The position numbers and the translations under genes are program-made. A DNA stretch of 64,000 bases from positions 128,001 to 192,000 of the forward strand of contig CAXWPJ010000002.1 in the NCBI GenBank assembly GCA_963664115.2, read 5' to 3'. Positions within the stretch are counted from its first letter, which is position 1. The number at the start of each line of letters is the position of its first letter. Shown here piece by piece: positions 3,115-45,843 of the stretch. Source of the stretch: Terriglobia bacterium. Its GTDB lineage: Bacteria > Acidobacteriota > Terriglobia > 20CM-2-55-15. The notes beneath the pieces are model-generated. The model ran no database searches. It was not told the DNA's origin and saw only the letters and a list, made by a program, of their open reading frames with translations.

Positions 3115-3143
3115 CTAGTGCAGCGTCGCGTTTTTTTCCTAAA

Positions 3144-22454: not shown

Positions 22455-23351
22455 TCATGCACGCGGGTGGTGATCCTGATAAATCTGTTTTAGTCTTTCC
22501 CGAATAACGTGGGTATAAATCTGAGTGGTCGAGATGTCTGCGTGTCCCAGCATCATCTGGACGGAGCGCAGGTCAGCGCCCCGTTCCAGCAAATGTGTTG
22601 CGAAAGAATGCCGCAGCATGTGCGGCGTGACCTTCTTTTCGATCTTGGCGCGTTTCCCGTGCCCCCGCAATATCAGCCAGAAGCCTCCCCGCGTGAGGGC
22701 TTGGCCTCTATAGTTAAGAAAAAGACTCGGGCTCGTCTTCTTGGGACGTCCGCGATCGATGTAATCACGAACGGCCTCTGCGGCGGTCTCCCCTAAGGGA
22801 ACTATTCTTTCCTTGCTCCCTTTTCCCATCGAGCGGACAAAACCGTTTTCCAAATCGACGGAATCCATGGTCAGGGCAACAAGTTCGGAAACTCGAAGTC
22901 CCGTGGCGTAGAGCACTTCGAGCATCGCTCGATCTCTAAGCCCCCTAGGTCCGGAAACGTCAGGCGCTCCCAGGAGACGGTCGACTTCGTCAAAAGTCAG
23001 AAAGTGAGGGAGGGGTTTCCAGGCTTTGGGTACATCGACTGCCGAGGTCGGATTTTCTTCGGTAGCGCCATCGAGGATCAGGAATCGATACAGTCCGCGA
23101 ACCGCGCTCAGAGCGCGGGCGGCCGAACGGGCTTTTAATCCATGATCGTACAGAAAGCTTAGAAACGCGGAAACACCCGTTGCCCCCACACCGAGCACAT
23201 CGCGCTTATCCAAGTACTCTAAGTACAGCGTAAGATCGCGGCTGTAGGCACCGACCGTGTTCGCGGACAGCCCTTTCTCAATTCGAATGTACTGGATGAA
23301 ACGGTCGACCCACTGATCGTTCGTCACCGAATGATTCGCGGCGGATGTCAT
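22455..23351 (-). CDS. xerD: Tyrosine recombinase XerD
   Basis: EKGLSANTV.AY, LYATGLRVSEL, TPHMLRHSFATHLL, LGHADISTTQIYTHV...HHPRA. Confidence 0.92.
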   Translation of the reverse strand: MTSAANHSVTNDQWVDRFIQYIRIEKGLSANTVGAYSRDLTLYLEYLDKRDVLGVGATGVSAFLSFLYDHGLKARSAARALSAVRGLYRFLILDGATEENPTSAVDVPKAWKPLPHFLTFDEVDRLLGAPDVSGPRGLRDRAMLEVLYATGLRVSELVALTMDSVDLENGFVRSMGKGSKERIVPLGETAAEAVRDYIDRGRPKKTSPSLFLNYRGQALTRGGFWLILRGHGKRAKIEKKVTPHMLRHSFATHLLERGADLRSVQMMLGHADISTTQIYTHVIRERLKQIYQDHHPRA

Positions 23352-25136: not shown

Positions 25137-25244
25137 AAAAACGGCCTTTTGTCCGAATCATTCTGACGACGTACAAGCGGGAACGTCGCGTTTTCATCCC
25201 GTTAGTCTGCGTTCGGGAGACTTAAGCTGACAATGCCCACTAGT

Positions 25245-27091: not shown

Positions 27092-27226
27092 ACTAGTGGC
27101 CTTGGCCTCCATCTCAAGCACTACAAACGAACGTGAATCCGGCCGCTGTATTGTGTATGCTGCAGTGAGATGTTCCGAAATGAGGATGCAGCGAGGAATT
27201 CCCTCGCACGACAAGAGGAGATTCAC

Positions 27227-27727
27227 ATGAAGTGGATGCGCACACTAGCTATTTTCGTCGCCGGGTCCGCAGTCGGCGCCGTTGCGATGCAGACGGTTGC
27301 CGCTCAGGAAAGCAGCAACACAGGCCTCCGCCTGAACCACGTCGGAATCGCCGTGGAAGACGTGGGTGAGGCCATAGAGTTTTACACCAAGGTGATGGGT
27401 TTTCGGGTGGCGTTCGAGTTTCCGAGCCCGGATGGCCGACCGACGACCACGTATCTCCAGATCAATCGTGACACGTTCCTGGAAGTGGCGCCGGCCAATG
27501 CAGATAGAGCCGCAGGCACCATCACCCACATCGGCATTCAATCCGAAAACGCGGACGCCACGGTCGCCCGGCTTCGCCAAGGCAGGGCAACAGTGACCGA
27601 CCCTCGCGTCAGTTCGAACAGTAGGGCCAAACTCGCCAACGTCACCGATCCTAACGGGATCCGATTGGAGTTGAATGAACTGGTTCCCGGCTCGCTCACG
27701 AGGCAAGCGGTAGAATCCTGGAGGTAG
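27227..27727 (+). CDS. Exported VOC/glyoxalase-family protein
   Basis: LNHVGIAV, FLEV, THIGI, DPNGIRLELNE; signal peptide; GAGGAG RBS. Confidence 0.85.
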   Translation: MKWMRTLAIFVAGSAVGAVAMQTVAAQESSNTGLRLNHVGIAVEDVGEAIEFYTKVMGFRVAFEFPSPDGRPTTTYLQINRDTFLEVAPANADRAAGTITHIGIQSENADATVARLRQGRATVTDPRVSSNSRAKLANVTDPNGIRLELNELVPGSLTRQAVESWR

Positions 27728-27808
27728 TTGCCTGGTCATGCTATGTTGGCCCAATGGCATACATCGTTTGGTAATACCGCGAACATGCTTTTAGATTGGA
27801 GGTGCCCT

Positions 27809-28180
27809 GTGAGATATCGGCTCATGACGGTTGCCGCGGTGGCGGCCGGCCTTCTGATAGTTTCAGTCCCGCTGGTAGCGCACCACAGTAACGTCAACTT
27901 CGATACCGGAAAGGAAATTACGATGCAGGGGACCGTCACGGAATGGGTTTGGGCCAATCCCCACTGCTTCTTAATATTCGATGTGCGGGACGACAATGGC
28001 AGCGTCGTTCACTGGATTGCTGAAAGTAGTAATCCTCCCGGCATGGCCCGGAAGGGCTGGAGCAACCAGTCACTGAAGCCCGGCGATGAAGTTACTGTGA
28101 CAGTGGAGCCCGTCAAGAACGGCAGCCCACTCGGGCGTATGCTGCAAGTCGTACTCCCGAATGGTCAGACATTAGATTAG
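27809..28180 (+). CDS. DUF6152-family exported protein
   Basis: Signal ending LVA|HHS...FD...GTVTEWVWANPH...W.AE...LKPGDEVTV. Confidence 0.8.
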   Translation: MRYRLMTVAAVAAGLLIVSVPLVAHHSNVNFDTGKEITMQGTVTEWVWANPHCFLIFDVRDDNGSVVHWIAESSNPPGMARKGWSNQSLKPGDEVTVTVEPVKNGSPLGRMLQVVLPNGQTLD

Positions 28181-28343
28181 GCACCCAGGGGGCCGGAAAT
28201 GTGGCCGCCCCGCCTTCGAGATAGGATGGAACCGTCGGCGCTTGAAGCAAGTCTGCTTTGATTGCAGGTCGATCATACAGTTTACGAGTGCGGCTCTTGT
28301 TGAGTTGCGACGAAATATGGATTTCGGGTAAGGAGTTACACGT

Positions 28344-29195
28344 ATGCCGAATCGACGCATAGTCTGGATCATCATCCTTGCTGTAGTACCGGCCTTTTCC
28401 CTCCTCGCTTTGGCTCAGACGCCTCAACCCATCTGGAATTCAATGGCACCGCCTGCCGAGTCGGATACGGTGCGAAACCGAGCGCCCGCCCCACGGCGTG
28501 ACCTGTCTGGGATTTGGGACCCGGCCGTCAACGCCATCGGGGCAGATGGTGCGCAAAACATGCCATCAGACGGCAGACCTGAGCATACTCTGCCTTATAC
28601 GTCGTTGGGGGAGGAAGCGTTCGATGCCAACAAGCCGGCATGGGGCGTTACCGGCGTTCCGTCGGCGCTTTCCAATGATCCAGTGCCTCTTTGTGATCCA
28701 CAGGGATTTCCGCGCATCGTTCTTCATAATTTCAGAACAAGCCAGATCTTTCAGACGGCGAACCAGGTGATCATCCTGTACGAATTTAACAAGAAATGGC
28801 GTGTCATTTGGACTGACGGACGAGAACTGCCCGAGTTGGATGAACTGGAGCCAAGATGGTGGGGGTACTCGGTTGGCAGGTGGGAGGACGACACCACGTT
28901 TGTCGCTGAGACGGTCGGGCTCAATGAAAGTACCTGGCTTGATAATGCAGGGCGTCCACACAGCAGCGATCTGCGCGTAGTGGAACGATACCGCCGCCTG
29001 GACCACGATCGCTTGGAAATGACAATTACGATTGACGACCCGACATTCTACACCCAACCTTGGATAGCACTCGACAAGCTACCTCTGGCGTTACAGCCGT
29101 CCGATTTCGATATTAGGGAGATGGAGTGCTCACCGTCAGAAACGGAGAGATATAACAGGCTGTTTGGTGACCCTGCCGCTGGTGTGGAACGATAG
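28344..29195 (+). CDS. Exported hypothetical protein (DUF6152 partner type)
   Basis: DLSGIW, DP...CDPQGFPR, GYSVGRWEDD..VAET, PHS..L.VVERY, TIDDP..YT.PW, EMEC. Confidence 0.75.
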   Translation: MPNRRIVWIIILAVVPAFSLLALAQTPQPIWNSMAPPAESDTVRNRAPAPRRDLSGIWDPAVNAIGADGAQNMPSDGRPEHTLPYTSLGEEAFDANKPAWGVTGVPSALSNDPVPLCDPQGFPRIVLHNFRTSQIFQTANQVIILYEFNKKWRVIWTDGRELPELDELEPRWWGYSVGRWEDDTTFVAETVGLNESTWLDNAGRPHSSDLRVVERYRRLDHDRLEMTITIDDPTFYTQPWIALDKLPLALQPSDFDIREMECSPSETERYNRLFGDPAAGVER

Positions 29196-29260
29196 CAAGA
29201 GCCGCGAATGACACCGTATCAGGCGGCAAGCATCAACGCGCTGCTGCCACTAGCTGACTT

Positions 29261-29674
29261 TGGCATTCCCGCAAGGTTCTGGCCTGGCGACTCTCAAACA
29301 CGCAGGATACGGCGATGTGTGTCGAAGCTTTGGAAGAAGCCATCGAACGCTACGGCTGTCCGGAAATCTTCAACACCGATCAGGGCAGCCAGTTCACCAG
29401 CACCGCCTGGACCGATGTTCTAAAGCATCACAACGTTCGGATCTCGATGGACGGCAAAGGCCAGTGGATGGACAACGTGTTCATCGAGCGTCTCTGGCGC
29501 TCACTGAAATACGAATGCGTCTACCTGAACGCCTTCGAGGATTTCAAAGATGCGGATATTCATATAAGGGATTGGATGGAGTACTACAATGACCATCGGC
29601 CCCATTCCACCCTCGGCGATCTCACCCCGGGCGAGGTCTACGACGGAATCACAACGGTATCTTCGGCAGCATGA
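29261..29674 (+). pseudogene. IS3-family transposase, 5'-truncated
   Basis: WHSRKVLAWRLSNT, FNTDQGSQFTS, DNVFIERLWRSLKYE, YNDHRPHSTL. Confidence 0.88.
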
Positions 29675-29679
29675 TTAAC

Positions 29680-31064
29680 GAGTTATAACCGAATCTGGTG
29701 TTTGAGGGATTGAATAAGAGCGGCGTATCTGGTTGATTTGTTGTGACAAAACTTCAAAGCAACCATAGGAGATACGCCACTGTGAGCAAGAGTAACGTGA
29801 ATGGACCGGAAGGTCGAGAAACGATTGAGGATCCAGTAACAGAACTACTACGAGTTGGGGCACAGCAACTGATCCAACGCGCAGTGGAAGCCGAATTGGC
29901 AGAGCTGCTATCCCAGCACGGTGGCCGGCGAACTGAGACAGGAAACGCCGGGGTGGTACGCAACGGTTATCTGCCGGAACGCGAACTGCAGACGGGATTG
30001 GGTCCGGTAACAGTCCAAATCCCGAAGGTCCGTGCCAAGACGGGCGAAGCTGTGACGTTCCGATCGGCCCTGGTACCACCGTACATTCGGAAGACGAAGT
30101 CGCTGGAAGCAGCGGTGCCGTGGTTGTATTTGAAAGGCGTTTCCAGCGGCGAGATGGGTGAGGCCCTAAAAGTTCTTGTCGGTCCCCAGGCGCAGGGTCT
30201 GTCGGCGAGCACGGTATCGCGGTTGAAACAGGTTTGGGGCGAACAGTACCGCCTCGGATGCGAGGAGCGTTTGGATGCAGATCGCTGGGTCTATGTCTGG
30301 GCCGACGGCATCTACAGCGGACTTCGGGCGGAACAAACCAAGTTGTGTGCATTGGTCGTGATCGGCGTGAATGAACGCGGAGAGAAGCGTTTCCTGGCGA
30401 TCGAAGACGGTGTACGGGAATCGACACAGAGTTGGCGCGAGGTCTTGTTGAAGCTGAAGTCCCGTGGGATGAATGTTCCGAAGTTGGCCATCGGTGACGG
30501 TGCGATGGGGTTCTGGGCCGCACTGGAGGAAATCTATCCCGAGACACGTCAACAACGTTGCTGGATGCACAAAGTCATGAACGTCCTCAACTGCCTGCCC
30601 AAGTCGGTCCAGGCGAAGGCGAAACAGGCCCTGCACTCGATCTGGCAGGCCGAGACGAAGGCAGACGCCGAGAAGGCATTCGACTTGTTCATTGAAACCT
30701 ATGAACCGAAGTATCCGAAAGCCACACTCTGCCTGCAGAAAGACAGAGAGGAACTGCTGGCCTTTTACGACTTTCCGGCCAAGCACTGGCAGAGCATCAG
30801 AACGACGAATCCCATTGAGTCGACCTTTGCCACCATTCGACACCGAACGAAGCGATCCAGAGGTTGCCTGACACGGGATGGCATGCTGCACATGATGTTC
30901 AAACTGGGCCAGTGCGCTGAGAACAATTGGCGACGATTACGAGGATTCGATGATCTGAGCAAGGTAATCATCGGAGTGAAATTCAACGATGGTGTCGAAG
31001 CGACACAAGTCGATCAGGCCGCCGCTTGAATCAATCTCCTAAACACCACTTTTGACAATAACTC
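29680..31064 (+). mobile_element. IS256-family element inserted in IS3 remnant
   Basis: TIRs GAGTTAT...GGTGTTT / AAACACC...ATAACTC; 9-bp duplication ATGATTAAC (29671-29679, 31065-31073). Confidence 0.9.
29782..31029 (+). CDS. IS256-family transposase
   Basis: RNGY, YVWADG, IGDGAMGFW, QRCWMHK, RTTNPIES. Confidence 0.93.
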   Translation: MSKSNVNGPEGRETIEDPVTELLRVGAQQLIQRAVEAELAELLSQHGGRRTETGNAGVVRNGYLPERELQTGLGPVTVQIPKVRAKTGEAVTFRSALVPPYIRKTKSLEAAVPWLYLKGVSSGEMGEALKVLVGPQAQGLSASTVSRLKQVWGEQYRLGCEERLDADRWVYVWADGIYSGLRAEQTKLCALVVIGVNERGEKRFLAIEDGVRESTQSWREVLLKLKSRGMNVPKLAIGDGAMGFWAALEEIYPETRQQRCWMHKVMNVLNCLPKSVQAKAKQALHSIWQAETKADAEKAFDLFIETYEPKYPKATLCLQKDREELLAFYDFPAKHWQSIRTTNPIESTFATIRHRTKRSRGCLTRDGMLHMMFKLGQCAENNWRRLRGFDDLSKVIIGVKFNDGVEATQVDQAAA

Positions 31065-31073
31065 ATGATTAAC

Positions 31074-31128
31074 CGTGGAATCCACCTTAAAATGGCTGCC
31101 AAGCTGTCCAACCGATGGGGTCCACTTC
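31074..31128 (+). mobile_element. IS3-family right end resumed after IS256
   Basis: CTGTCCAACCGATGGGGTCCACTTC, typical of IS3-family IRR. Confidence 0.7.
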
Positions 31129-31169
31129 TCTTAGCAACTGCCGCAGTCATTCTTGGAACGTAAGCGCTG

Positions 31170-31682
31170 CTACGGACCCGTCGCGGGGGCCCCCGCGTGC
31201 AGGTAATAGCGAATCCTCTCGAAAACTTCGTCCTCCAGCTCTAGGATTTCGCGAATCTGTTGTTGTGAGGCCAACAGGCCGTTAGATTCGCGGTACGCGA
31301 GCAGCCGGGCGGCCTGCTCACGGGTAATTCCGGGGATCTCGACTAGTTCGTCCTCTGATGCCGCATTCACATCGACGAGTGGAGGCACCTCTGGGCCGAA
31401 CACGTCAGTCAGGTAAACGATAATCTCTTCGGCTTCGTCAAGGAAGATCGGAGCGCCTCGCCCGATCATGTCGTAAACCGTCGCTTCCCATCTTTCTCGC
31501 GGCTTTCGCTCCCGCACCGTGCGCTCGAGATTGTGGCAGCTCTGACCGCAATACTGGGCCGTGAGTTCCTGCCCCTGTCCCGGCGGCAGGTATTCTGTCC
31601 ACTCTTCTTCGCGTTCTTGGCCTAATAACACCAAAGTTACACACATGCACCCGACCAATCCCACCGCTAGCCACTTATACAC
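31170..31682 (-). CDS. Cytochrome c-like domain plus ComEA-type helix-hairpin-helix
   Basis: LPPGQG.ELT...CGQSCH...W...V.DM..RGA; VDVNAAS.DEL..IPGI...A. Confidence 0.7.
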   Translation of the reverse strand: MYKWLAVGLVGCMCVTLVLLGQEREEEWTEYLPPGQGQELTAQYCGQSCHNLERTVRERKPRERWEATVYDMIGRGAPIFLDEAEEIIVYLTDVFGPEVPPLVDVNAASEDELVEIPGITREQAARLLAYRESNGLLASQQQIREILELEDEVFERIRYYLHAGAPATGP

Positions 31683-31765
31683 GTCCCTCCTCCCAATAAA
31701 TCCTCTCTCACCTGCCGCGGATGCTCAGTTCCTATCCCTGATGGCACAAGGCCAGTCAATCCGAG

Positions 31766-33679
31766 TTACACGAGTCTTGTCCGGGCTGCGGCAACCGAGT
31801 ACGCTGGGTACGAGCCCGCCTGTTCTGCACCGGAACCCGAGTTCTCGATACGGGCATCGATCAAGTACGGCCGCCCCTCACGCGTTGTTCTGATGGCCCG
31901 TGACATTGCCTCTCGAACTTGCTCGCGACTTTGCACCTGTTCGCCGCGGATGCCGAAGGCCTCGGCCACGCGAACGAAATCGACGTTCGGATCACCCAGG
32001 TAGGACAGCATGTCTTTTCCTACTTCGGCCTGGCGTCCGCCTCGCGAGAACATCCGGGCCCGGGTCTCGTTGTAGGAACGGTTGTTGAAAATGACGACGA
32101 TGACGGGAACGTCGTAACGAGACATGCTCCAGAGCGCCTCGATTTGGCCGAACAGAAAACCCCCGTCCCCTTGCAAACACACCACCTGATTGTCGGGCCG
32201 TGCGAGCTTGACCCCGACGGACGCCGCAACACCCCATCCCAGCGCATATCCGATGGTCCGGCCGATCTTCGTCTTCTCTTCCTCGGCAAAATTAAACCAT
32301 CGGAGCGCCTTCGGACCTTGCGTTCCAAACTCTTCCACGATGTAAGCATCGCGGTCTAGGGCAGCGTTGACTTCATACCCCACGCACTCGAACGTCAGGG
32401 GAACCTCATCAAATCGGCGCTGGGCGACGAATTCGAAAGACTCACGCATCCTTTGCGTAAATTCTGCTGTTGCTTCCTGGCGGGGCTGCCGGATCCGCTC
32501 CAGACGTTCGTTAGTCGCCAGACTCCTGATACTTTCCACCAGGGCCGTGGCCGTCTCGTTGACGCTTCCGGCCAAGGGGACGTGAACCGGATAAGCCGTT
32601 CCGATATGATCCGTTTCGACACGGCCGTGTATGATCTTTGCGTTCCGGAGCCGATCGTTTTCGAGCGACGCCGCGCCCGACATATGCGCGCCTAAATTCA
32701 AGTACACGTCGATGCTTTCAGGAAAGCGGCCACCGGAGACTTCAAGAAACAGCGGATGTTTGGTTGGGAAGTCGGCGGCCCAGCTCCGCGCCTGGGTCAC
32801 TGGAATTGCCAACAGTTCCGCAAGCTCGACAACGGATGCCCCAGCGCCAGATGCGGTAACCTCCGGGCCCACGTATAGAAGAGGGCTTTCGGCCTCGAGC
32901 AGCATCCGGGCCGCCTCGTCCACGTCTTGCGGGTGGGGTTGCAGAGTCGTGGGTACGCTGAACGTACGGGACGGGTAGATGCCCGCCCGCATATTACTTG
33001 TGTAGAGCACATCGCGGGGAAAACGAAGATACACCGGTCCTCCCGGCATAGTCGTAGCCAGCTTCAAGGCTTTCGTGGTCCACTCGGGAATTCGATCGGG
33101 CTCAGACACAAGCCAGCGGAACTTCGTGAACTGCTCGACGGTTTCCAGCCAGTCCTCGACGTCTTCATGTCCGTCCCGTCCAGCGCGATCGGTCTCGGAG
33201 TGATCTGAAGTCACGATGATCGGGCTACGATCCTTCATCGCGTTGTACATGTTTGACGTCGCGTTGGGCGATCCCACACGACTGATCATCACGAAGCCGG
33301 GGTTTCCCGACGCTTTCGCGTAGCCGTCCGCCATTGCGACACAGTGGCCCTCATGGGTAGCGAGAATTGGTTGCATGTCGGGGCGATCGACGAGCGCATC
33401 ACACAGTGGGCCGAGCCCCGAGCCATTTCCGAGGAACAGGAACTTAATGCCAGCGGCCCGCAATTGTTCCGCCAAGACCTCTCCGGCATTCCCTTCGAAC
33501 GGAGTCAGCAGTTCGGCTGGGGCGTCCCCCGCCTGAGCGCTCTGAGCCTGGACGAACGGTTCCAGCGATTTCAAGACGGATGCGACCGCGGTCACTCCGA
33601 ACCCAGCCTGCGACATCCGTTTCACGAAAGACCGGCGTGGAATCGTCTGCTCGATGTAGTCTCTAACGATATCTCTCAT
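31766..33679 (-). CDS. ThDP-dependent enzyme (benzoylformate decarboxylase/ALS-like) with Tat signal
   Basis: RRSFVK; HEGHCVAMADGYAK; GDGGF...NNRSY ThDP motif. Confidence 0.85.
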   Translation of the reverse strand: MRDIVRDYIEQTIPRRSFVKRMSQAGFGVTAVASVLKSLEPFVQAQSAQAGDAPAELLTPFEGNAGEVLAEQLRAAGIKFLFLGNGSGLGPLCDALVDRPDMQPILATHEGHCVAMADGYAKASGNPGFVMISRVGSPNATSNMYNAMKDRSPIIVTSDHSETDRAGRDGHEDVEDWLETVEQFTKFRWLVSEPDRIPEWTTKALKLATTMPGGPVYLRFPRDVLYTSNMRAGIYPSRTFSVPTTLQPHPQDVDEAARMLLEAESPLLYVGPEVTASGAGASVVELAELLAIPVTQARSWAADFPTKHPLFLEVSGGRFPESIDVYLNLGAHMSGAASLENDRLRNAKIIHGRVETDHIGTAYPVHVPLAGSVNETATALVESIRSLATNERLERIRQPRQEATAEFTQRMRESFEFVAQRRFDEVPLTFECVGYEVNAALDRDAYIVEEFGTQGPKALRWFNFAEEEKTKIGRTIGYALGWGVAASVGVKLARPDNQVVCLQGDGGFLFGQIEALWSMSRYDVPVIVVIFNNRSYNETRARMFSRGGRQAEVGKDMLSYLGDPNVDFVRVAEAFGIRGEQVQSREQVREAMSRAIRTTREGRPYLIDARIENSGSGAEQAGSYPAYSVAAARTRLV

Positions 33680-33759
33680 GATTTCGCCTCCTGGCGTGCT
33701 AAGGATTCCTCTCCTCGAAGAGCTCGACGAAGAGAGAACCTCCATTGCCGTTCGTCGGT

Positions 33760-34108
33760 TTTAGCGGGCCGCTCTACGGAACTGTTTTCTTCGATAGGCC
33801 TCTTCAGATTTGACCCCAACCGAACTATATATGATATCCGTCCGGATGACGCCGTTTCGTCATGGTGAATCCCAGGGGCGGCCTGCAAGCGGCTTCGGGG
33901 CTCCAACAGATAGTCGAGATCCAAAATTGGTTTGAAGAACTGAAGGAACGGGCTCCTGTACCGTAACTTTCAAGCTCAAGTTCTGAGAAATCATCTTCTC
34001 GGAGATTGAGAAATGGTCGAAAGTCGGGCATCGACGCATTCCTTGCCAATAACCCTCCCATGTAGATAGACTTACCAGAATTTGGGCGCTCTCTTTGGCG
34101 GCAAACCT
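33760..34108 (+). repeat. Kinase-TolB 3' remnant plus conserved promoter-like tail, copy 1
   Basis: LF...YDIRPDD/RFVMV...QNWFEELKERAPVP* (TAA 33964), then TTGCCA-N18-TAGACT. Confidence 0.8.
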
Positions 34109-34192
34109 GGGCTGGCCCGACGGCAACGGACATGATTGCGGCGGCTGGAGAGACTACGGCCGCGGATAAGAAATCTCTTCGGGGAGGCAATA

Positions 34193-35128
34193 ATGAACAC
34201 AAAGACAATCAGCGTCGGCTTATTGATTCTGGGTGCCGGCTTCGTATTTTCCCAGATGGCGGGTGCGCAGGGCGCGGGCGCCAATGTCGATACGATCACC
34301 CAGTTGACGGATAACGTCTATCGGCGCGGCCCCACCTCGAACGTCTTCATGGTGACGGACGAGGGCATCATCATGGTCGATGCCACTTGCGATGGGGGAG
34401 GTATGGAGTGGCTCAAGGAAGAGTTAGATCGCCGGTTTGGCGTCCCGGTGAAGTACGTCATCCTGAGTCACGACCACGAGATGCACATCTGCGGGCTGCA
34501 AGTCTTCGATGACACAGCGGTGACGATCGGCCACAAGAACATCAGAGAGCACATTATTAGAGAAGGCCGGAATACATCCGTACCCGATGTCGTCTTCGAG
34601 GGGGATAACCTGGAGATCTATCTCGGTGGCCAGAGGGCGATCGTGTACTATTTCGGTCCCCTCCACAGCGACAACCTGGTCCAGGTTCACTTCCCAGACG
34701 AAGGCGTGATGGTCGCGACGGATCTGGTTCGCGCCGGCAAGTCGATCGGACTGCCCGACTACCGCGACTCGAACGTGAACAACATGATCGAGGCGCTCTG
34801 GAAATTATCTAAACTGGATAACATCGATATCGTGGTTCCCGGTCACGCGGGCCTCGCCGATCAGCAATCGTTTACCTTTTATCGTGAGTATCTGATCGCT
34901 CTCAGGGAGCGGGTGCTGGACGAGATGGTGGAGGGCGCCTCAATCGAGGAGATTCTGGAGCGGGTCACCATGGAGGATTTCTCCGACTACGGCAACTACG
35001 ACAACTGGCTTCGCGCCAATATCATCTCCATGTGGGATTATCTCTATCGCTACAGGGAGCCGAGCCAGGGCGTGGGGGACTACCAGAATGTGTATCCCAT
35101 CGGTTTCCCGATCGGCGCTCCGGAGTAA
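34193..35128 (+). CDS. Exported MBL-fold metallohydrolase
   Basis: SHDHEMH, LHSDN, ATD, VPGH; signal peptide. Confidence 0.85.
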   Translation: MNTKTISVGLLILGAGFVFSQMAGAQGAGANVDTITQLTDNVYRRGPTSNVFMVTDEGIIMVDATCDGGGMEWLKEELDRRFGVPVKYVILSHDHEMHICGLQVFDDTAVTIGHKNIREHIIREGRNTSVPDVVFEGDNLEIYLGGQRAIVYYFGPLHSDNLVQVHFPDEGVMVATDLVRAGKSIGLPDYRDSNVNNMIEALWKLSKLDNIDIVVPGHAGLADQQSFTFYREYLIALRERVLDEMVEGASIEEILERVTMEDFSDYGNYDNWLRANIISMWDYLYRYREPSQGVGDYQNVYPIGFPIGAPE

Positions 35129-35234
35129 GCGCGAGCGAGGACTACACGACGCATGCATAGGACCCCTGGCCCGATCGCCGCGCTGGCACTCACCGGCCGG
35201 GCCGGAATTCGGCTCAAGCTATTGGCTGGTCCGG

Positions 35235-35400
35235 CGATCCGAATCAACATCGTCCTAAACTGGTTTGAAGAACTGAAGGAATGGGTGCCTGTGCCCTGAT
35301 TTTCGAGGTCAAGGCCTGAGCAATCATCTTCCCGGACCTTGAGAATCGCCCGAATTACAGGCGCTGACAGTTTTCTTGCTTATAAGTCCCGCCTGTAGAT
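35235..35400 (+). repeat. Kinase-TolB 3' remnant plus tail, copy 2
   Basis: RINIVLNWFEELKEWVPVP* (TGA 35297); tail similar to copies 1 and 3. Confidence 0.8.
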
Positions 35401-35407
35401 GGTGATC

Positions 35408-36280
35408 CTACCGGCCCGGTCCCCCCTCCGCCTCCCGGAGCATCGCTTCGAATCTGGCTTCGACATCCGGCACGAAACTCCTCCACCCTTCCGCGTCAAT
35501 GCAGGTCACACACCTCGGGTCGACGGGAAGAGCCGGGTCCAACTCGCGGGGCGGATCCTGCGGATGATTGTGGAGGAAGAGGTCGGGGGGTTCGAGCTCC
35601 TTCAGCCTTTGAAGAGTCCTCTGCGTGTCGGCGACAACCGTCGGGTGCCTGGGATTGTTGAAGAGCTGAGCCCCCGCGTTCGGAATTTCGCCGCCACGGA
35701 AGGCGATGGAATAAGTATTCCCACCCTCCTCGACGGTTGTCATCCACATCGTTGCTCCTTGCGTGTGGCCCCCCGTCCAGAGGGCGCGCAACGTCACTGC
35801 GCCGAGCGTGACTGTGTCACCGTCCTCGACCACGCGATCCACCGTGACAGGCTCAAAGTTCCGGGCCCCGATAGCCGAGTTGTCCTGGCCTGATTGGAGC
35901 GCCACGGCGTCGCCGCCGAGCGCAACAACCTGCGCACCGGTCACTCGCTTCATGGCCGCGTGCCCCTCGACGTGGTCCCAATGTGCATGGCTCGAGATCA
36001 TGATCCGGATGTCCCGAACGTTGAATCCGAGTTTCTCGACGTTCGATACGATGAGCTCGTGCATATCGGCACTGCCCGTGTCGTGGAGAATGTGGCCCTC
36101 CGGCGTGGTGATGAGATAGGAGCCATATTGGCCGCCCACATAGTAGATATTGCCTATGACGCGGAACGGTTCCACGGTTTCGTTCGCCGCCTGAATTCGC
36201 TCTCTTCGTTCCGCCCCACCATACGGCGACATCGATACCATCGCTGCACTCAGCACCACCAGTGCACATATCAGACGCAT
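35408..36280 (-). CDS. Subclass B3-like metallo-beta-lactamase fold protein
   Basis: PFRVIGNIYYVG, SYLITTPEGHIL, SHAHWDH, GGHTQG. Confidence 0.85.
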   Translation of the reverse strand: MRLICALVVLSAAMVSMSPYGGAERRERIQAANETVEPFRVIGNIYYVGGQYGSYLITTPEGHILHDTGSADMHELIVSNVEKLGFNVRDIRIMISSHAHWDHVEGHAAMKRVTGAQVVALGGDAVALQSGQDNSAIGARNFEPVTVDRVVEDGDTVTLGAVTLRALWTGGHTQGATMWMTTVEEGGNTYSIAFRGGEIPNAGAQLFNNPRHPTVVADTQRTLQRLKELEPPDLFLHNHPQDPPRELDPALPVDPRCVTCIDAEGWRSFVPDVEARFEAMLREAEGGPGR

Positions 36281-36440
36281 ACGGCCTCCTTACAAAAGTT
36301 GTGGATGTCAGACGCGTTTTCAGGTTTTCAACACCGCATCGTGGGTCGGCGTAAGATACATCATTTTCGAATTACTCAAGTTTCAGTATCCGAGGACTTC
36401 ACCGGATGAGACCTCCGGCAGTCGGGCGGCACCGGCTGGA

Positions 36441-37394
36441 TCAATATTCCCCACGCGCCACATCTGCACTCAGGCACTCGATCTGCCACCCGGCAAATTG
36501 CTGGAAACCCTCCACACCAATAAGGAATGGATTCGGCTGGCCCGGTTGACGCGTCCGCGCTGCTTCGATCGTCGGCAGGGAATCGTCGATGTAGGAGTGG
36601 TTGTTGAGTTCGACGTCCACCCCGGCCGCTTTGGCGAGCGTCGCCATCCGCTGGGTCGATTCCATCATCTCGCGAGAAGTCGCCAGCGAAACGGTCCGTG
36701 GTCCGTTCAGGAAAAAGGCGAGGTGAGGCTGCCCACCTTCCATCACGGGCACCATCGTAGACAACGCTCCGTCAGTATGCCCCGGCGTGGAGTAAAACGT
36801 CAGGGTCGTGCCCCCGAGGGTCAGTGTGTCACCGTCGGCTACCACCATGTCGCGCTCCGGCGGTGCCGCGCGGCCCGATTCGGTACTCGCTTCCATCGTA
36901 CGCCAGGCCAGTTCGGTCGCCACCACTCGCGCGCCAAAACGTTCCTGAAGGTAGCGGGCGCCTCCATAGTGATCGCCATGTTCGTGGCTGATCACCACGT
37001 ACTGGATACGTGAGGGATCGAGGCCGAGCTGTTCCATGCCCCCGACAATCTTCACCTCCGCATCCTGGGCATCGTTCAAAGAATCGAGAAGAATAATCCC
37101 GTCGGGTGTGTCCACCGCCCACGAATAGACCCTGGGGAGACCCAGGAAGTAGAGGTTGTCGAAGACACGGACGGGCGCCACCGTTTCGGGAAGCTCGGGC
37201 CGGGGGCGGCCGTTGCGGGGCAAGCATAGCCGCGTCATTGCTCGCTCGTAACGCGTACCGGCAAGTTCTATGGCTTTATCGACGTGCATCTGCACCGCCG
37301 GTGCTTCCTGCGCATGCGCGGGAACGGCGGTGGCCAGGTTCGAAACGACAACGGCGACTACGAGCATGAATTTTACTGTCTGCATTGTTTTCAT
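36441..37394 (-). CDS. B3-like MBL-fold hydrolase
   Basis: VFDNLYFLG, SHEHGDHYGG, TPGHT, NNH; N- and C-terminal Cys. Confidence 0.85.
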   Translation of the reverse strand: MKTMQTVKFMLVVAVVVSNLATAVPAHAQEAPAVQMHVDKAIELAGTRYERAMTRLCLPRNGRPRPELPETVAPVRVFDNLYFLGLPRVYSWAVDTPDGIILLDSLNDAQDAEVKIVGGMEQLGLDPSRIQYVVISHEHGDHYGGARYLQERFGARVVATELAWRTMEASTESGRAAPPERDMVVADGDTLTLGGTTLTFYSTPGHTDGALSTMVPVMEGGQPHLAFFLNGPRTVSLATSREMMESTQRMATLAKAAGVDVELNNHSYIDDSLPTIEAARTRQPGQPNPFLIGVEGFQQFAGWQIECLSADVARGEY

Positions 37395-37751
37395 TGTCCT
37401 ATTCTCATGTTCAATTCAAAGGAAAACGCGCGCGAATACCGGCGTCACGGCCAAACTTCCCCAATACTTTGCACCCGCTGCCGGGCAAACGTCTAGATAA
37501 TTCTCATCAGCTAGACCCCCGGCTATGCCGGCGTGACTCGCAGAAGTTTGTCCCTACTTCCTTCATTTCCTGGGCATACACTGCACCTGTCCGTTCACGT
37601 AAAGTGTTCGATTGACCGCCTGCGGTCACCCGTCTAGTCGAAAGTTGAGAATCGAATCTACCACCGAGGGCGCGTATTTCACCTATACTTCACCGACACT
37701 AGCTTGCGCCCGCTGACAGTATCGTCCGTCCAGACTTATAAACACCGCCGC

Positions 37752-38603
37752 CTAAGCAGATTCAGGCCGATGCGCCCGGAGGAAGGAACGAATCTGGCGC
37801 ACTGCCAGGGGAATTAGCTCGGGAGGCTCCTTCCATGGGTACATGCTCAGTTCGGCTTTCGGCGCGAGCATCGCAGACTCCATGGCGACGGCGTAGGGGT
37901 GCGCCGGGCTATCATCGGGCAGGATCAGTACGGGCGTCTGGCAATTGCGCACGAAATCGCGTGTCACGGTGATGACGAAGTCGATGTTGCGATACATCTT
38001 GGTCAGGTATGCGTCGACCGTCTCCATCGTGATCTCGGGCCGGCTCTCCACTATCTCGGAGCCCCAGCCGCTCATGTTGCCCTCGTAGAAGCGGTCGGGC
38101 GCTTCCGGGCGGAACCCAAGGGGCTGCGCCAGCACGGCGGCGGCGACACGATCCGGAGCCCGCTCCAGCAGGTTCCAGATTAAAGGGCCGGCGATGCAGA
38201 AGCCCAGCACCATGAACTTGTCGATGCCCAGGTGATCCATCAGACCGAGATGGTCATCGGTATATGCATCCCACGGCCGGTCGATCTCGAGTGGGCCGGT
38301 GGATTGGCCGGGAATGGCATTGCGCAAGTCCGATCCGATGCAGCGGTATTCTCCGCTGAACTCCTCGATCGTGTTAAAGGGGCCTCGGAACAATCCGGAC
38401 ATCGTCGAGTTCAATCCCCCGCCGGCGATGAGCAACAACGGGAAGCCGGAACCGAACTCTTCATAGTGGATGCGAACGGGGCCTCTTTCGTAGAAGGAGC
38501 CAGTGCCCCCCTGCCCCGTCTGTTGAGCGAACAAGCGCGGCGCTGCGGCCATCGCCGTCGCCGCGGCTCCCGCCGCCAGTATTTTGCGTCTGATTGGATC
38601 CAT
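37752..38603 (-). CDS. Alpha/beta hydrolase with Cys nucleophile and Tat signal
   Basis: IRRKIL signal; GFCIAG elbow; GGGLNS. Confidence 0.82.
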   Translation of the reverse strand: MDPIRRKILAAGAAATAMAAAPRLFAQQTGQGGTGSFYERGPVRIHYEEFGSGFPLLLIAGGGLNSTMSGLFRGPFNTIEEFSGEYRCIGSDLRNAIPGQSTGPLEIDRPWDAYTDDHLGLMDHLGIDKFMVLGFCIAGPLIWNLLERAPDRVAAAVLAQPLGFRPEAPDRFYEGNMSGWGSEIVESRPEITMETVDAYLTKMYRNIDFVITVTRDFVRNCQTPVLILPDDSPAHPYAVAMESAMLAPKAELSMYPWKEPPELIPLAVRQIRSFLRAHRPESA

Positions 38604-38724
38604 AGTCGACGTCCTCCTCAAATTGTTGCGTCCCGTGGGTGCGGGTCAAATCGCCAGAGCGTTGTCCTCTAGAGCTTCGAAAATATATCATGGTCTTCTT
38701 GAAAGAGCGGACCGAATTGGAAGA

Positions 38725-38940
38725 AGCCGAGCGCCCATGAATCAACATCGTCCTGATCTGGTATGAAGAACTGAAAGAACGGGTGCCGGTGCCCTAGAAA
38801 AATGATTCTCGAGTCCTGATAATTCCCGTTCCCGGACCTTGGGAATTGGCAAATTTTAGGGACTTGACCCTGTCCTTGCCAATAACCTTCCCTTGTCGAT
38901 AGACTTAGCAGAATTTCGGTGTCCCGTTTGGCGACACACT
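38725..38940 (+). repeat. Kinase-TolB 3' remnant plus tail, copy 3
   Basis: *INIVLIWYEELKERVPVP* (TAG 38795); TTGCCA-N18-TAGACT at 38876-38905. Confidence 0.8.
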
Positions 38941-39182
38941 AAATCATCAATCCGGAATGGGACTTGTGTGCATTCTCGTCCAAACGTAGATCTCTATGGA
39001 GGCGCTGGAAGCACGTATGAGGCTATGACTGTTGCCTACAGCTATGTAGGATTGATGGATCAGGACTTGGCACCCGGCCCGACCTGCTCCTGTGTGAAGC
39101 TGCTAGCCGGGTGAGTGCCTAGAGCACTTCGGTCCAGGCAATCACCTGTCCGGTTGGCCGGATGCCAAGTAAGGAGGACGCC

Positions 39183-40241
39183 ATGCATGCTGCTGTCCCT
39201 AGATGCGTATCGAGTGCTGCACTGATGCTGGCCTTAGTCCCGAGCGCCACAGTCAATCGGATGGCGGCCCAAGAGGCACAGCCACAACGGCCACTGGTTA
39301 AGATCGTCGCCACCGGCGGCACTATTGCCAACTCGCCCGAGGGTCGCATGGCCGTGGATACGGTGCTGGCGCAGATTCCTGAAATTGCCGAACACGCGCG
39401 AATCGAGGTGGTGGATTATAGCCGCATAGGCTCGTCGGCAATCACAGTACAGAACTGGATCGACGTCGGAGCTATCGTCAACCAGATCTTTGAAACCGAA
39501 CCACAGGTGGCCGGCATCGTCGTCACGCACGGCTCGAATACCTCTGAGGAGACCGCATACTTCCTGTCACTCACCGTGAACCACACCAAGCCTGTTGTGG
39601 TGACCGCCGCCCAGCGCCAACAGAGCACTCTGGGCGAAGAAGGTACCCGCAACCTTTTCGACGCCATCCGCGTCGCCGCCTATCCGGGGGCAGCGGGCAA
39701 GGGCGCGATGCTCGTAGTGAACGAAAAGATTCATCCTGCTCGTGACGTGACCAAGCGGATGACGGTGCGCGTGGAAACTTGGGAGTCGGGCGATGTGGGC
39801 GCACTGGGTGTTGTAGATGTCGATGCGGTCACCTTTTACAATCAGCCGGTCTACAAGCACACCACCGGTTCCGACGTGCGACTTCCTGCCGGCATTACCC
39901 GGGCGGGCGAGTTACCCCGGGTAGATATTATCTACGCCTATGCCGACGCCGACGGTGCGCTGGCCGAGGCAGCCGTTCAGGCCGGAGCGCAGGCGATCGT
40001 GGTCGCTGGCTTTCCGACAGGTGCGGCCACGCCGGCCCAGTATGAGACGCTGGACCGGCTGCGCGATCAGGGCACCATCGTGATCATGTCGAACCGCGGC
40101 GGACTGGGCCGGATCAACACCAACAACCGGTATATCTCGGCCGATAATTTGACCCCGCAGAAGGCACGCATCCTGGCCATGCTGGCGCTGACGCGCGATC
40201 CGTCGGCCGCATTCGTTAAGGAAGTGATGGACTCACACTGA
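39183..40241 (+). CDS. Asparaginase/glutaminase family, exported
   Basis: ATGGTIA, THGSNTSEETAY, RDVTK, NLTPQKARIL; AAGGAGG RBS. Confidence 0.88.
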   Translation: MHAAVPRCVSSAALMLALVPSATVNRMAAQEAQPQRPLVKIVATGGTIANSPEGRMAVDTVLAQIPEIAEHARIEVVDYSRIGSSAITVQNWIDVGAIVNQIFETEPQVAGIVVTHGSNTSEETAYFLSLTVNHTKPVVVTAAQRQQSTLGEEGTRNLFDAIRVAAYPGAAGKGAMLVVNEKIHPARDVTKRMTVRVETWESGDVGALGVVDVDAVTFYNQPVYKHTTGSDVRLPAGITRAGELPRVDIIYAYADADGALAEAAVQAGAQAIVVAGFPTGAATPAQYETLDRLRDQGTIVIMSNRGGLGRINTNNRYISADNLTPQKARILAMLALTRDPSAAFVKEVMDSH

Positions 40242-40337
40242 AAGAAAGGAGTGCCGGTCCCGTGAAGCTGGTTCTGCCCACTATGAGGTTGAAACGCCCT
40301 CCCGTTAGTAGTACGTTCTTTTTTGCAAGGGGGAGGT

Positions 40338-41399
40338 ATGCAGACATTCCCGCTCGAGCCTCGAAGACGCCACATCTTCATTAAAGCAATGGCACCTGCC
40401 CTTCTGGGTCTGGTTGCCATCGTCACCGCGACTGTAGCTTCGGGACACCATGCCGCCCAGGTTACCTACTTCACGGATCAGGTCATTGAGGTCGAAGGTG
40501 AAATTACCGGTCTTCTCTGGAGAAACCCGCATCTGCGTTTCACCATCAATGCAACTGATGCGCAAGGCGGGACGGTGCTATGGAATGTTGAGAGTATCCC
40601 GGTGACCCGACTCGCACGGGTTGGTATATCGGCCGACCTGGTCGGTGTGGGACAGACGGTCAGGGTGGCAGGATTTCCTTCAAGACGTTCTACGAATGCA
40701 GTCTATGCCATCAATATGTTACTTCCCGATGGCCGGGAAGTTCTCCTCGACACCCCCGTCGCGCGCTGGACCGATAACACACTCGGCACAGGCCGCGATG
40801 AGACCCCGGGGACCCCGAGCGCTGATACCTCTTTAGGCATTTTCCGCGTGTGGAGCACCGACGGCGTGCCTCTGCCTCTGAACCGCAACGAAAGCTACCA
40901 ATTAACTGAAGAGGCCCGCATCGCTCAAGCTCGGTGGGACCCCCTATCGCCCGACAACCCATTTTTCACGTGCACGGCCAAGGGCATGCCGATGATCATG
41001 ACGCAACCCAACCCGATGGAGTTCGTGGATCAAGGAGACCAGATTCTCCTTCGACTCGAGGAATACGATACCGTTCGGGTGATCTCCATGCGCAGTGAAG
41101 GGTCGGATGAAGCGATCGAGGCGACGCTTCTCGGCCACTCAGTTGGCCGATGGGAAGGACGCACTCTTGTGGTGATGACCGACCGGATAAACTGGCGTTA
41201 CTTCGGTCAGAACGGACTGCTTCAAAGTGAGGCGATCGAGCTCGTCGAGCGCTTCACCCCGAGCGTGGACGGGGCTCGCCTCGACTACGAGCTGACAATC
41301 ACGGATCCAGCGCTTTTTACCGAGCCAACGGTCCTGACGAAGTCTTGGCAATGGGTGCCCGGAGATCAGGTCTTGCCGTTCGACTGTACGGAAGGTTAG
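40338..41399 (+). CDS. DUF6152 domain fused to partner domain
   Basis: ASG|HH...WRNPH then NPFFTCTAKGMP...GHSVGRWEG.TLVV.T...ITDP..FT.P...FDC. Confidence 0.78.
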   Translation: MQTFPLEPRRRHIFIKAMAPALLGLVAIVTATVASGHHAAQVTYFTDQVIEVEGEITGLLWRNPHLRFTINATDAQGGTVLWNVESIPVTRLARVGISADLVGVGQTVRVAGFPSRRSTNAVYAINMLLPDGREVLLDTPVARWTDNTLGTGRDETPGTPSADTSLGIFRVWSTDGVPLPLNRNESYQLTEEARIAQARWDPLSPDNPFFTCTAKGMPMIMTQPNPMEFVDQGDQILLRLEEYDTVRVISMRSEGSDEAIEATLLGHSVGRWEGRTLVVMTDRINWRYFGQNGLLQSEAIELVERFTPSVDGARLDYELTITDPALFTEPTVLTKSWQWVPGDQVLPFDCTEG

Positions 41400-41510
41400 T
41401 CACCGGCGGCGAGCGCTATCCCAGGTGCGCTCATCGGCCACCGACGCGTTGAGACCAACGCGCTTTTTGCCCATCGCAATCATCGGCGCAAGCCGACGAC
41501 CCCGTTGTCC

Positions 41511-42833
41511 TCAACCGTCATATTGCAGCACGTTCAAGCCGGCATTCCAGTCACTGGCATAAATCACGCCATCCGGCCTGACGTGAACATCGGCAGTCTT
41601 GGGCGCCAGCGTGACGTTCGGACGGGGATCGATCATCCGCTGCGGCAGTGGTGGCACCCAGTAGGCGATTTCCCGGGGCGCGAACGCGTTGCCGATATCG
41701 AACACACGGACGCCCGCGTTGTTGTAGGTTGCGAAAAGGATCTCCTCGCTCTGAAAGCTGCCGGGCCTGTTCTCGTGCAGGTTGTGCGGCCCGAATGTTC
41801 CGAGTGAACAGAAATCACGCTCGTTCGGGGTCGGTAGCGTTGAGATCGGTACCGGATTCCCGGGGTCACGAACATCGACGACGAAGGTATAGAACGTCCC
41901 CTTGGCACACAGTTCAGCGTTTGCTTCGTCGGCCACAACGACGAGATCGCGACCGGGCAATGGCAATGCGGTGTGGGTGCCGCCGGGAAAGGGCGGAGAC
42001 CAGTTGATGTGTGAGAGAAGCTCCGGCTCGGAGGGATTGCTGATGTCGTGGATCGTGAGACCGCCATCGCGCCAGCAGGCATAGCCGCGCTCGCCGGCGG
42101 TGATCATGTGGTGCATGGCGACCCGGCGGCCCTCGACTTCGGCCGCCGGTTCGCCAGCCCCCCGATTCATGCCGGGTAGCCACCAACGCGAGATGATCTC
42201 CGGATTGGTGATGTCGTTCAGATCGACGATGGCGAGAATGTGGTCCGTAAAACCATCGAAATGCGCCGCAACATAGGCATAGCGTCCGCCCGCCCACCAC
42301 AGCCGGTTGATACCGAAGCCCGGCATCTCGAGAAAAGCGATCTCGCGCATCGCATCAGGCTGGGAGATGTCGTGAATGCTCAGGCCTGAGCGAAATTCCC
42401 TGCGGTCGGTGATAGTGTCGACAAGCGCGTTCTCGAAATAGCTGCGCATGTCGTCATACGACTGCATCGCAACGACGTTCGCACCATTGGCGAGCAGCAG
42501 CAGGTCTTCCCCTACCTGCAGATGATGCGTGCGTGTGTAACCGCCGGCCGTAAAGAAGCCGACGGGCCTCAATTGACGCGGATCTTCGGCATTGAGTATC
42601 GTCACGCCGTCACTGAACATATGGCCGACGTATAGGTGGTTGCGGTTGAACATCACCTGGACGCTGTCGGGACGACCGCCAATATCGCAATACGAGAGGT
42701 GGCGCATACCCTGGCCAATGCCTTCGGGCGGAATCACGCTCTGGGTAGGAGCCATAACGTCGTCTGAAACGCACGACGCCGCTCCGGCGCCGAGCAGACC
42801 CACCATCCATTCACGGCGATTCATTTTGCTCAT
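41511..42833 (-). CDS. LVIVD-repeat beta-propeller Tat lipoprotein
   Basis: NRREWM...AASC lipobox; DISNP.EP repeats; THT, ADE, GPHN, YASDWNAGL. Confidence 0.8.
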   Translation of the reverse strand: MSKMNRREWMVGLLGAGAASCVSDDVMAPTQSVIPPEGIGQGMRHLSYCDIGGRPDSVQVMFNRNHLYVGHMFSDGVTILNAEDPRQLRPVGFFTAGGYTRTHHLQVGEDLLLLANGANVVAMQSYDDMRSYFENALVDTITDRREFRSGLSIHDISQPDAMREIAFLEMPGFGINRLWWAGGRYAYVAAHFDGFTDHILAIVDLNDITNPEIISRWWLPGMNRGAGEPAAEVEGRRVAMHHMITAGERGYACWRDGGLTIHDISNPSEPELLSHINWSPPFPGGTHTALPLPGRDLVVVADEANAELCAKGTFYTFVVDVRDPGNPVPISTLPTPNERDFCSLGTFGPHNLHENRPGSFQSEEILFATYNNAGVRVFDIGNAFAPREIAYWVPPLPQRMIDPRPNVTLAPKTADVHVRPDGVIYASDWNAGLNVLQYDG

Positions 42834-43031
42834 AGTTGACTTATAACACCGGCTTCGAGCATTGCCTAGTCAAGACCTGGCGGGGGGGATGGCAAATTCG
42901 ACGGGGCCGGTTTCGTTTGCAAGGGGGGCCGGGTGTATGGGTCTTTTCGGCCTCCGGTTCCCGCGCCAATCAGTACGAAAAGGCCCACCATAGAGGCGCG
43001 TCGGCGTTCGTCCCGGAAACGCTTTTAATCT

Positions 43032-45688: not shown

Positions 45689-45843
45689 AGATTTTTCACC
45701 GCAAAGGCGCAAAGACGCAAAGGGTAAGACCTTGCAGTCTTTCTGTGTCAGGGAATGTACCGTTGTCAACTCTCGCCGAAAACGTTCGGTGAGCAGGAAT
45801 AAATTGTCTTTCTTTGCGCCTTCGCGCCTTTGCGGTGAAATCT
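45689..45843. repeat. Intergenic inverted-repeat element (CACCGCAAAGGCGCAAAG type)
   Basis: TTTCACCGCAAAGGCGCAAAGACGCAAAG ... CTTTGCGCCTTCGCGCCTTTGCGGTGAAA. Confidence 0.8.

Follow-up and report, generated by a model that had tools for sequence, protein, structure and literature searches.

Candidate Xer-family sites may divide the variable chromosome of a Terriglobia bacterium into moving gene modules, often framed by kinase relics

We analyzed a 64,000-nucleotide stretch of a Terriglobia genome (the window; positions 128001–192000 of contig C2 in the genome under study, G000), in which a unit made of a decayed kinase gene end and noncoding DNA occurs three times among genes for a thiamine pyrophosphate (TPP)-dependent enzyme, three metallo-β-lactamase (MBL)-fold proteins, an α/β hydrolase, an asparaginase, and a DUF6152 protein. 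Judged from its sequence, the repeated unit is a 39-bp Xer/dif-like site, and the kinase tail and promoter found with it are the eroding ends of a kinase gene that often frame cargo genes. About 180 such Xer-family sites, mostly co-oriented, appear to cut the variable chromosome into moving gene modules, most likely through the host recombinases XerC and XerD, a reading to which we assign a probability of about 0.58. That a site-specific cassette system of some kind is at work, whether run by the host Xer proteins or by a dedicated recombinase, seems quite likely to us; the host Xer proteins are the recombinase that we favor, with some reserve.

A sequence-only reading of the window had placed three plus-strand units here, and all three were present, with kinase tails ending at 33966, 35299, and 38797. 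The tails end in IQNWFEELKERAPVP, INIVLNWFEELKEWVPVP, and INIVLIWYEELKERVPVP, each directly followed by the stop codon and each differing by one or two residues from the terminal motif that it gave. Homologous noncoding DNA follows the tails as described, over 148 nt at 74% identity between copies 1 and 2 and over 132 nt at 72% between copies 1 and 3. The promoter-like sequence TTGCCA-N18-TAGACT was found at 34043–34072 and 38876–38905, ahead of the co-oriented genes for an MBL-fold hydrolase (34193–35128) and an asparaginase (39162–40241); in copy 2, a −35-like box is all that is left, and the gene ahead of it is convergent. The tails had been attributed to the Ser/Thr kinase–PD40 family, correctly, as an intact relative elsewhere in the genome (889 aa) consists of Pkinase and PD40 domains, and no intact kinase was found among the listed open reading frames (ORFs) of the window or among the genome-wide kinase matches inside it. 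The notion of a conserved σ70-like promoter carried along with the unit held, and the definition of the unit as tail plus promoter had to be given up: the invariant part is the 39-bp core, which is also found without a tail.

A genome-wide search with a DNA profile of the unit gave 269 matches and none in the reversed genome, and the matches formed strand-biased clusters. They were anchored as 68 tails with a full core, 86 full cores without a tail, 44 tails alone, and 71 partial or unclassified matches. Across 133 distinct cores, conservation was high in all 39 columns and reached background within 2–3 bases on the right. Simple erosion of a tandem kinase array, against which the sequence-only reading had set its own proposal, would leave random breakpoints and no excess conservation of the noncoding part; since conservation of the core greatly exceeds that of its flanks and ends sharply at its borders, simple erosion fails, and the kinase breakpoints are nonetheless spread out. 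A matrix search returned 179 non-overlapping full cores, a count that takes in copies within duplicated segments, and none in the control. The same 6-bp spacer was present in 136 of these cores and in 111 of the 133 distinct ones, with a second spacer in a minority, and 21.8% of the genome lay within 5 kb of a site or half-site. Adjacent common-spacer sites within 8 kb were on the same strand in 112 cases and on opposite strands in 6. Second-spacer sites were inverted relative to the nearest common site in 24 of 26 cases, and 19 of them directly precede a kinase promoter. An inverted partner within 150 bp was found for 14 of 146 sites, and some inverted core doublets are spaced 15 or 105 bp apart. 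Next to common-spacer sites, some kinase tail remained in 85 of 154 cases and none in 69. RNA structure, for which a covariance analysis had been proposed, found no support: Rfam covariance models gave no match at E ≤ 1 in window positions 33600–39300, the variable inner pair of the core showed no compensatory change (46 versus 43.8 after shuffling), as is expected for a double-stranded binding site, and the core folded no better than its shuffles.

On the minus strand, the core has the 11-6-11 geometry of dif, with a XerC-like arm, a 6-bp spacer, and a weak XerD-like arm. A pattern derived from published acidobacterial dif predictions (three rows of supplement 2, PMC3025954) matched in 19 of 41 genomes, usually at a single dif-like site, and a dif matrix was built from the dif-like loci of eight relatives; the dif of G000 was missed by the pattern and found by the matrix. 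Its best candidate is a single site at C2:108118–108145, 20 kb left of the window, which scored 35.9 bits (next, 22.9) and at which the GC skew changes sign, turning negative. With the same matrix, 90 of the 179 cores reached at least 8 bits in a single register (mean 6.0 bits; next register, −5.9), and the mean dif score of the cores was reached by 16 of 20,000 column shuffles, a control built after the likeness to dif had been noticed. The XerC-like arm, most commonly ACGTCCGAGAA, had a mean of 8.2 bits, which was reached by 3 of 20,000 random 11-mers. The XerD-like arm, most commonly TTCTCAGGACT, had a mean of −2.2 bits versus 19 for dif and matched at 7 of 11 positions at best. Both xerC and xerD are present in G000 and in the congeners checked. 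The host xerD lies in the window, outside the array (22455–23351, minus strand), scores above the TIGR02225 cut-off, and is a candidate recombinase subunit; the idea that this window tyrosine recombinase is an integron integrase was rejected, as it is a plain XerD. A xerC-like gene at C9:863627 was assigned by similarity. In addition, a second dif-like family, in which the XerD arm is good and the XerC arm weak, was seen at C2:776048(−), C2:260077(−), C2:986636(+), C10:408527(+), C12:154255(+), and C3:222(−), mostly followed by a GC-rich hairpin and often within the same arrays, and a few other sites reproduce the main dif in their XerC arm and spacer.

The flanks of the sites are reassorted within the genome and between species. 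Among 96 pairs of G000 cores sharing a right flank, 73 had unrelated left flanks and 17 shared both flanks. Site flanks likewise differ between G000 and its congener G002, of which 436,527 bases, picked for holding sites, were compared: 31 of 92 G002 sites have a flank in common with a site in G000 (the right only in 18, the left only in 12, and both, from two different sites, in 1), some of these flanks being multi-copy promoter flanks, and none of the 92 shares both flanks with one and the same G000 site. The ends of G000/G002 homology blocks fell within 30 bp of a site in 29 of 165 cases (shifted controls: mean 3.2, maximum 10), and only 2 of 87 homology blocks ran through a site. The genes at window positions 31134–43000 are found in G002 as separate blocks of 85–96% identity spread over both of its contigs. 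An arm-linkage test agreed with expectation for one half of the core only: the left half tracked the left flank (0.85 versus 2.44 differences) and not the right (2.52). The flank comparisons within and between genomes lend support to the earlier proposal of a recombination or attachment site at which unrelated genes would be shuffled cassette-like without an integron.

Kinase remnants frame many of the modules. Genome-wide, we found 148 tail matches and 118 head/promoter matches (controls, 0 and 0), along with four full-length kinases, one truncated kinase, and one distant relative. The tails beside sites were 7 to 57+ nt long and the head fragments of widely varying length; a fixed 5′ breakpoint of the tail was rejected on this scatter of tail lengths. 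More kinase sequence was present upstream of at least 27 of the 148 tails, a lower bound because the longer-tail profile was built on nine proteins only. The promoter pattern occurred at 76 of the 118 head/promoter matches versus 2.9 after shuffling, a figure that is overstated because the pattern was written after the sequences had been inspected, and 39 of the 118 matches had no adjoining site. Of 55 site-free head-to-tail intervals, 44 contained non-kinase ORFs, 8 kinase sequence only, and 3 were short; judged from their starts, four of the 44 held only transposases and one was a duplicate, which leaves about 39 kinase head/promoter–cargo–tail modules. Modules of this build are conserved between species. 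Cargo orientation in modules was the same in 51 cases and opposite in 31. In two other genera, several kinase tails overlap the start of the next kinase without a Xer-like site, and tandem kinase genes are therefore probably the ancestral state. Two side observations concern the kinases: at L148 and L153 (genomes G021 and G013), GTAG-type repetitive extragenic palindrome (REP)-like doublets follow kinase tails where the Xer-like site would be, and the intact kinase at L002:5477–8146 varies more between samples (up to 20 differences per contig, with indels) than the adjacent cargo (0–4), where a mix-up of paralogs is possible.

These relics can be followed through the window. The module ending at copy 1 (31134–33759, minus strand) carries a small HhH-domain gene (31170–31682) and the gene for the TPP-dependent enzyme (31766–33745); in G002 it consists of a kinase head (aa 1–25), cargo, and a tail, and the G002 site at its end is broken at the spacer by sequence resembling the ends of the IS30 elements of G000. 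The copy 1 tail relic (33760–33966, plus strand; start approximate) is a frameshifted Ser/Thr kinase–PD40 C-terminus of about 70 codons whose G002 ortholog matches kinase aa 817–889. It is followed by the 39-bp core (33976–34014, minus strand), which comprises the XerC-like arm (33996–34006), the 6-bp spacer (33990–33995), the degenerate XerD-like arm (33979–33989), and outer palindromic bases. The predicted σ70-like promoter at 34043–34072 (plus strand; −35 box, 18 nt, −10 box) comes from a lost kinase gene and is deletion-fused to the MBL module, which begins with a kinase catalytic-domain relic (34097–34146, plus strand; end approximate). In three congeners (G001, G002, and G004), the catalytic-domain sequence upstream of the MBL gene is longer (kinase aa 1–233 in G002), and the G000 deletion joined the promoter to the relic. 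The MBL-fold hydrolase gene itself (plus strand) thus has a kinase head relic on one side and a kinase tail on the other. This tail, copy 2 (35243–35299, plus strand), has kept the final 18 codons and the stop, and the homology of the module with G002 ends at the right edge of the core (35309–35347, minus strand).

Beyond copy 2 lie the truncated kinase promoter region (35348–35400, plus strand) and two further MBL-fold hydrolase genes (35408–36280 and 36441–37394, both minus strand), which in G002 occupy two different loci. The α/β hydrolase gene (37752–38621, minus strand), found in G002 between a tail with an insertion sequence (IS)-broken half-site and a tail with a site, precedes copy 3, which consists of a C-terminal relic of about 38 codons (38681–38797, plus strand) and a core with a diverged spacer and a lower score (38809–38847, minus strand); homology of the hydrolase module with G002 stops 14 bp beyond this copy. 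The kinase promoter at 38876–38905 and its 5′ leader (together 38876–38945, plus strand; end approximate) stop just short of the lost start codon, and the asparaginase gene downstream (plus strand) has in G002 another locus, where it follows a tail, the kinase promoter, and the first kinase codons. Window positions 25240–39331, which include all three units, are a 14-kb reverse repeat (99.95%) of C2:1–14093 that starts at an IS1380 end; it is either a duplication or an assembly join, the read depths being ambiguous. Elsewhere in the window, a secreted 1644-aa protein with repeated domains and a low-complexity C-terminus built of 33-bp repeats is encoded at 13482–18416, and a 29-bp inverted repeat with an 89-nt loop lies at 45694–45840, after lpxD.

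Certain mobile elements are found preferentially at the core. Copies lying within 400 bp of a site or half-site made up 8 of 8 for IS30 and 7 of 7 and 6 of 7 for two IS110 types, together 21 of 22, compared with 5 of 75 for IS1380 and 10 of 53 for IS256, and the IS30 and IS110 breaks of the core lie in or beside the spacer. A core-targeting IS30 element (G000:C12:23351–24610) and two IS110 elements (C10:417483–419032 and C5:47886–49028) are natural cases for studies of target choice. The core is also interrupted by two IS91-type elements and by three group II intron-like 5′ ends, so classed from their 5′ motif. Six identical IS91-type elements (tyrosine recombinase plus Y2-like transposase) were seen at C1:93280, C1:107753, C2:196805, C12:35428, C12:158276, and C12:487341, with about 20 related copies in G001. 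A lone integron integrase gene lies at C9:714608–715549, and a simple scan found no attC-like site in the surrounding 14 kb. IS1380 (75 copies) and IS256 (53 copies) are expanded in the genome and are represented in the window at 1263–3120, 25240–27097, and 29680–31064.

The distribution of the site is lineage-restricted. Cores with at most two mismatches numbered 120 in G000, 80 in G002, 33 in G003, 9 in G001, and 0 in G004; two genomes of another genus had one each, and the remaining 34 genomes searched had none. A looser core pattern occurred in 9 of 35 family genomes and 2 of 11 genera, and the exact pattern was found across the genome collection in 9 stretches only, all of them Terriglobia records, this genome and near ones possibly being excluded. 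In G004, there are 43 kinase tails, and the site is a variant in which another spacer dominates and which IS30-like ends interrupt here too; in G007, more diverged 11-6-11-like motifs, judged by eye, follow some tails.

These data are consistent with a scenario in which an ancestor acquired a dif-derived site just 3′ of the stop codon of a tandemly repeated kinase–PD40 gene, which would have made the gene a mobile, spreading module. Foreign genes would then have landed in kinase modules, or neighboring modules would have been fused by deletion, and the cargo would thus have come to lie between an inherited promoter and, at its other end, a tail with a site. The kinase relics would erode randomly while the site is retained. 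Recombination between direct repeats with the same spacer would excise and insert modules and would also homogenize the spacer within a species; the minority of inverted sites with another spacer would correspond to pdif-like C/D pairs. Host XerC and XerD would act with some helper or at a low rate.

Several observations weigh against this reading. The XerD-like arm is weak rather than near-canonical (random 11-mers reach its score at p ~0.015), and the XerC-like arm shares 10 of 11 positions with class-level dif arms but only 8 of 11 with the arm of the genome's own dif. The conserved outer bases make the site longer than the 28-bp dif. As many as 136 of the 165 homology-block ends lie away from any site, and deletions and IS activity therefore also shape these regions; several window genes have other positions in G002, where no site was found to border them. 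At copy 1, the break in homology to G002 falls within the final codons of the tail, ahead of the spacer, and in the arm-linkage test the right half of the core differed less than random pairs for either flank (1.78 and 2.35 versus 4.19), the pairs being non-independent. Were XerCD efficient, so many direct repeats with a single spacer should be unstable, and the arrays should collapse. Of four sequencing runs, two had contigs that bridge copy 1, one of them perhaps the source sample, and in both its neighbors were unchanged, and no rearrangement distinguishable from repeat artifacts was seen in any run, as contigs break at repeats and the joints are short-sided and fit other copies. The XerD-like arm also differs at the fifth inner base, which one report on Vibrio describes as important for recombination driven by FtsK (PMC9226527). 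Slow activity is suggested by the weak XerD arm together with the unchanged neighbors across samples, and recombination is probably rare or regulated. Two runs labeled seawater metagenome (X12 and X14) gave 49% and 35% of the sampled words.

An alternative that we consider unlikely keeps the same cassette logic and makes the core the site of a dedicated tyrosine recombinase, Xer-related, element-borne, or since lost. The palindrome (~17-6-17), longer than that of dif, the weak XerD arm, and a forward arm that scores slightly XerC-like would suit such an enzyme, and candidates exist: a 316-aa recombinase at C5, flanked by two inverted sites; several IS91-type elements with integrase and Y2-transposase that lie inside a site or no more than about 45 bp from one; and the integron integrase on C9. 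The 316-aa enzyme, however, was not found in G002 or G003 despite their 80 and 33 sites, five sampled IS91-type copies of G001 sit at a short motif away from sites, and no site lies closer than about 190 kb to the integron integrase. Only XerC, XerD, and the IS91-type enzymes recurred in an incomplete survey of 30 of about 100 recombinase loci in five relatives. The host Xer proteins seem the simplest candidate. Also unlikely is that the core serves an amplified kinase gene as an operator or in some other role outside recombination, with modules reassorting by homologous recombination in tail-plus-core repeats of about 100 bp. An operator would show a conserved spacer too, the tail kept at 85 of 154 common-spacer sites gives enough homology, the switch at copy 1 falls in the tail, and tandem kinases with overlapping stop and start codons occur in other genera. 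Yet the 69 tail-less sites still have reassorted flanks, homology-block ends pile up at the core, the match in the dif register is improbable by chance, four intact kinases stand against 179 cores, and the inverted second-spacer copies face the promoter from the opposite side.

We regard it as very unlikely that the core is a selfish non-autonomous repeat, such as a REP/REPIN or a miniature inverted-repeat transposable element (MITE), inserted beside kinase ends and in variable regions. Its imperfect palindrome, high copy number, lineage restriction, occasional inverted doublets, and targeting by IS110 would fit, and two Y1 (RAYT-like) genes exist, one of them about 300 bp from a site. Nevertheless, insertion predicts unique flank pairs, whereas the flanks here are shared and reassorted, and the strand polarity is strong. 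No target-site duplication was found (2 observed versus 3.3 after shuffling), as a MITE would leave; for a REP, the GTAG/GGAG foot is present in only 11 of 179 cores, only one site lies near the two Y1 genes, with no flanking cluster, covariation is lacking, and hairpin z-scores range from −1.3 to +1.5. Hardly credible is that tandem kinase arrays simply eroded and that no special site exists: kinase breakpoints are scattered, only 27 of 148 tails show further kinase sequence upstream, and eroded tails without such a site are seen in other genera, but the conservation of the core is sharp and tail-independent and the flanks switch at the core.

If Xer-family sites do delimit moving modules here, then the layout of about 22% of an acidobacterial chromosome, integron-like and built of direct repeats, is set by Xer chemistry, and the making and decay of cassettes can be read from the kinase relics. 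We know of no explanation for the cassette formation step of integrons; gutted kinase modules would be a visible route to cassettes. The site would also offer several IS110 and IS30 elements a natural target and would explain the unconserved order of accessory enzymes in these genomes, and one site, two host genes, and defined module borders make the proposal testable in Escherichia coli. More tentatively, and with less than even confidence, we suggest a superintegron-scale system derived from housekeeping Xer, in which hundreds of polarized, spacer-homogenized, dif-derived sites occupy a fifth of the chromosome and cassettes have arisen from gutted selfish kinase–PD40 modules serving as a chassis.

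In the literature within our coverage, outside of which most subscription papers lie, searches on this idea and on the kinase expansion gave no account of such an element in Acidobacteriota. Most known gene modules that depend on Xer come from plasmids of Acinetobacter, where sites number in the tens. In Acinetobacter, dif modules depend on alternating sites in inverse orientation, and for excision the sites have to be directly oriented and to match in their spacers (PMC13141974); a chromosomal dif-module island has 10 clustered sites, 22 in all (PMC12907356); and IS1202-family elements target dif-like sites (bioRxiv 10.1101/2022.12.17.520857), the text of the last report mentioning Acidobacteria once and its supplements possibly listing acidobacterial cases. 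The arrays described here share with dif modules the 11-6-11 sites in rows with one to a few accessory genes between them, shuffled across genomes, an expected spacer match for recombination, and targeting of the sites by ISs; between G000 and G002, modules indeed occur in different contexts with their borders at sites, as those of dif modules do. The Acinetobacter modules differ, in the same sources, in their alternating C/D and D/C sites, near-canonical XerD arms, varied spacers, and 22 chromosomal sites. Here, 179 full cores are arranged as direct repeats (112:6) with one dominant spacer, a degenerate XerD arm, and conserved outer bases; the modules are often framed by kinase relics, and targeting is by IS30 and IS110, not by IS1202-family elements, for which no search was made. 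Strict C/D alternation was rejected, as adjacent sites are mostly co-oriented (112 same versus 6 opposite) and an inverted partner was found for only 14 of 146; the 26 second-spacer sites form the exception. A good XerC arm and a poor XerD arm are also combined in IMEX/TLC-type attP sites, which need an activator in place of FtsK (PMC9226527). The core resembles them in this respect, although those attP sites are, per that source, single phage attachment sites integrating at dif, whereas arrays are found here and no activator was identified, none having been searched for. The acidobacterial Ser/Thr kinase–PD40 family (TolB-like; PF00069 plus PF07676) is the source of the tails and heads, which are mostly relics.

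Sedentary chromosomal integrons, or superintegrons, contain hundreds of polarized, species-homogenized attC sites separating small variable genes, and these sites are parasitized by IS110-family elements and group II introns. The present arrays are similar in having many polarized, species-homogenized sites that divide small variable genes and in their IS110 and intron-like parasites. Identity of the core with attC was rejected, the R boxes RYYYAAC and GTTRRRY being present together in 0 of 179 cores, and no linked intI was found; trans action of the one intI, about 190 kb from the nearest site, is conceivable. Unlike superintegrons, the system thus has no attC boxes and no linked intI, is divided into many separate arrays, and carries cargo in both orientations, often with a promoter of kinase origin ahead of it. 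In its workings the system resembles a dif-module or superintegron array and falls outside strict membership of both; on our best reading, it is related to the Acinetobacter dif modules, but is mostly direct-repeat in layout and far larger.

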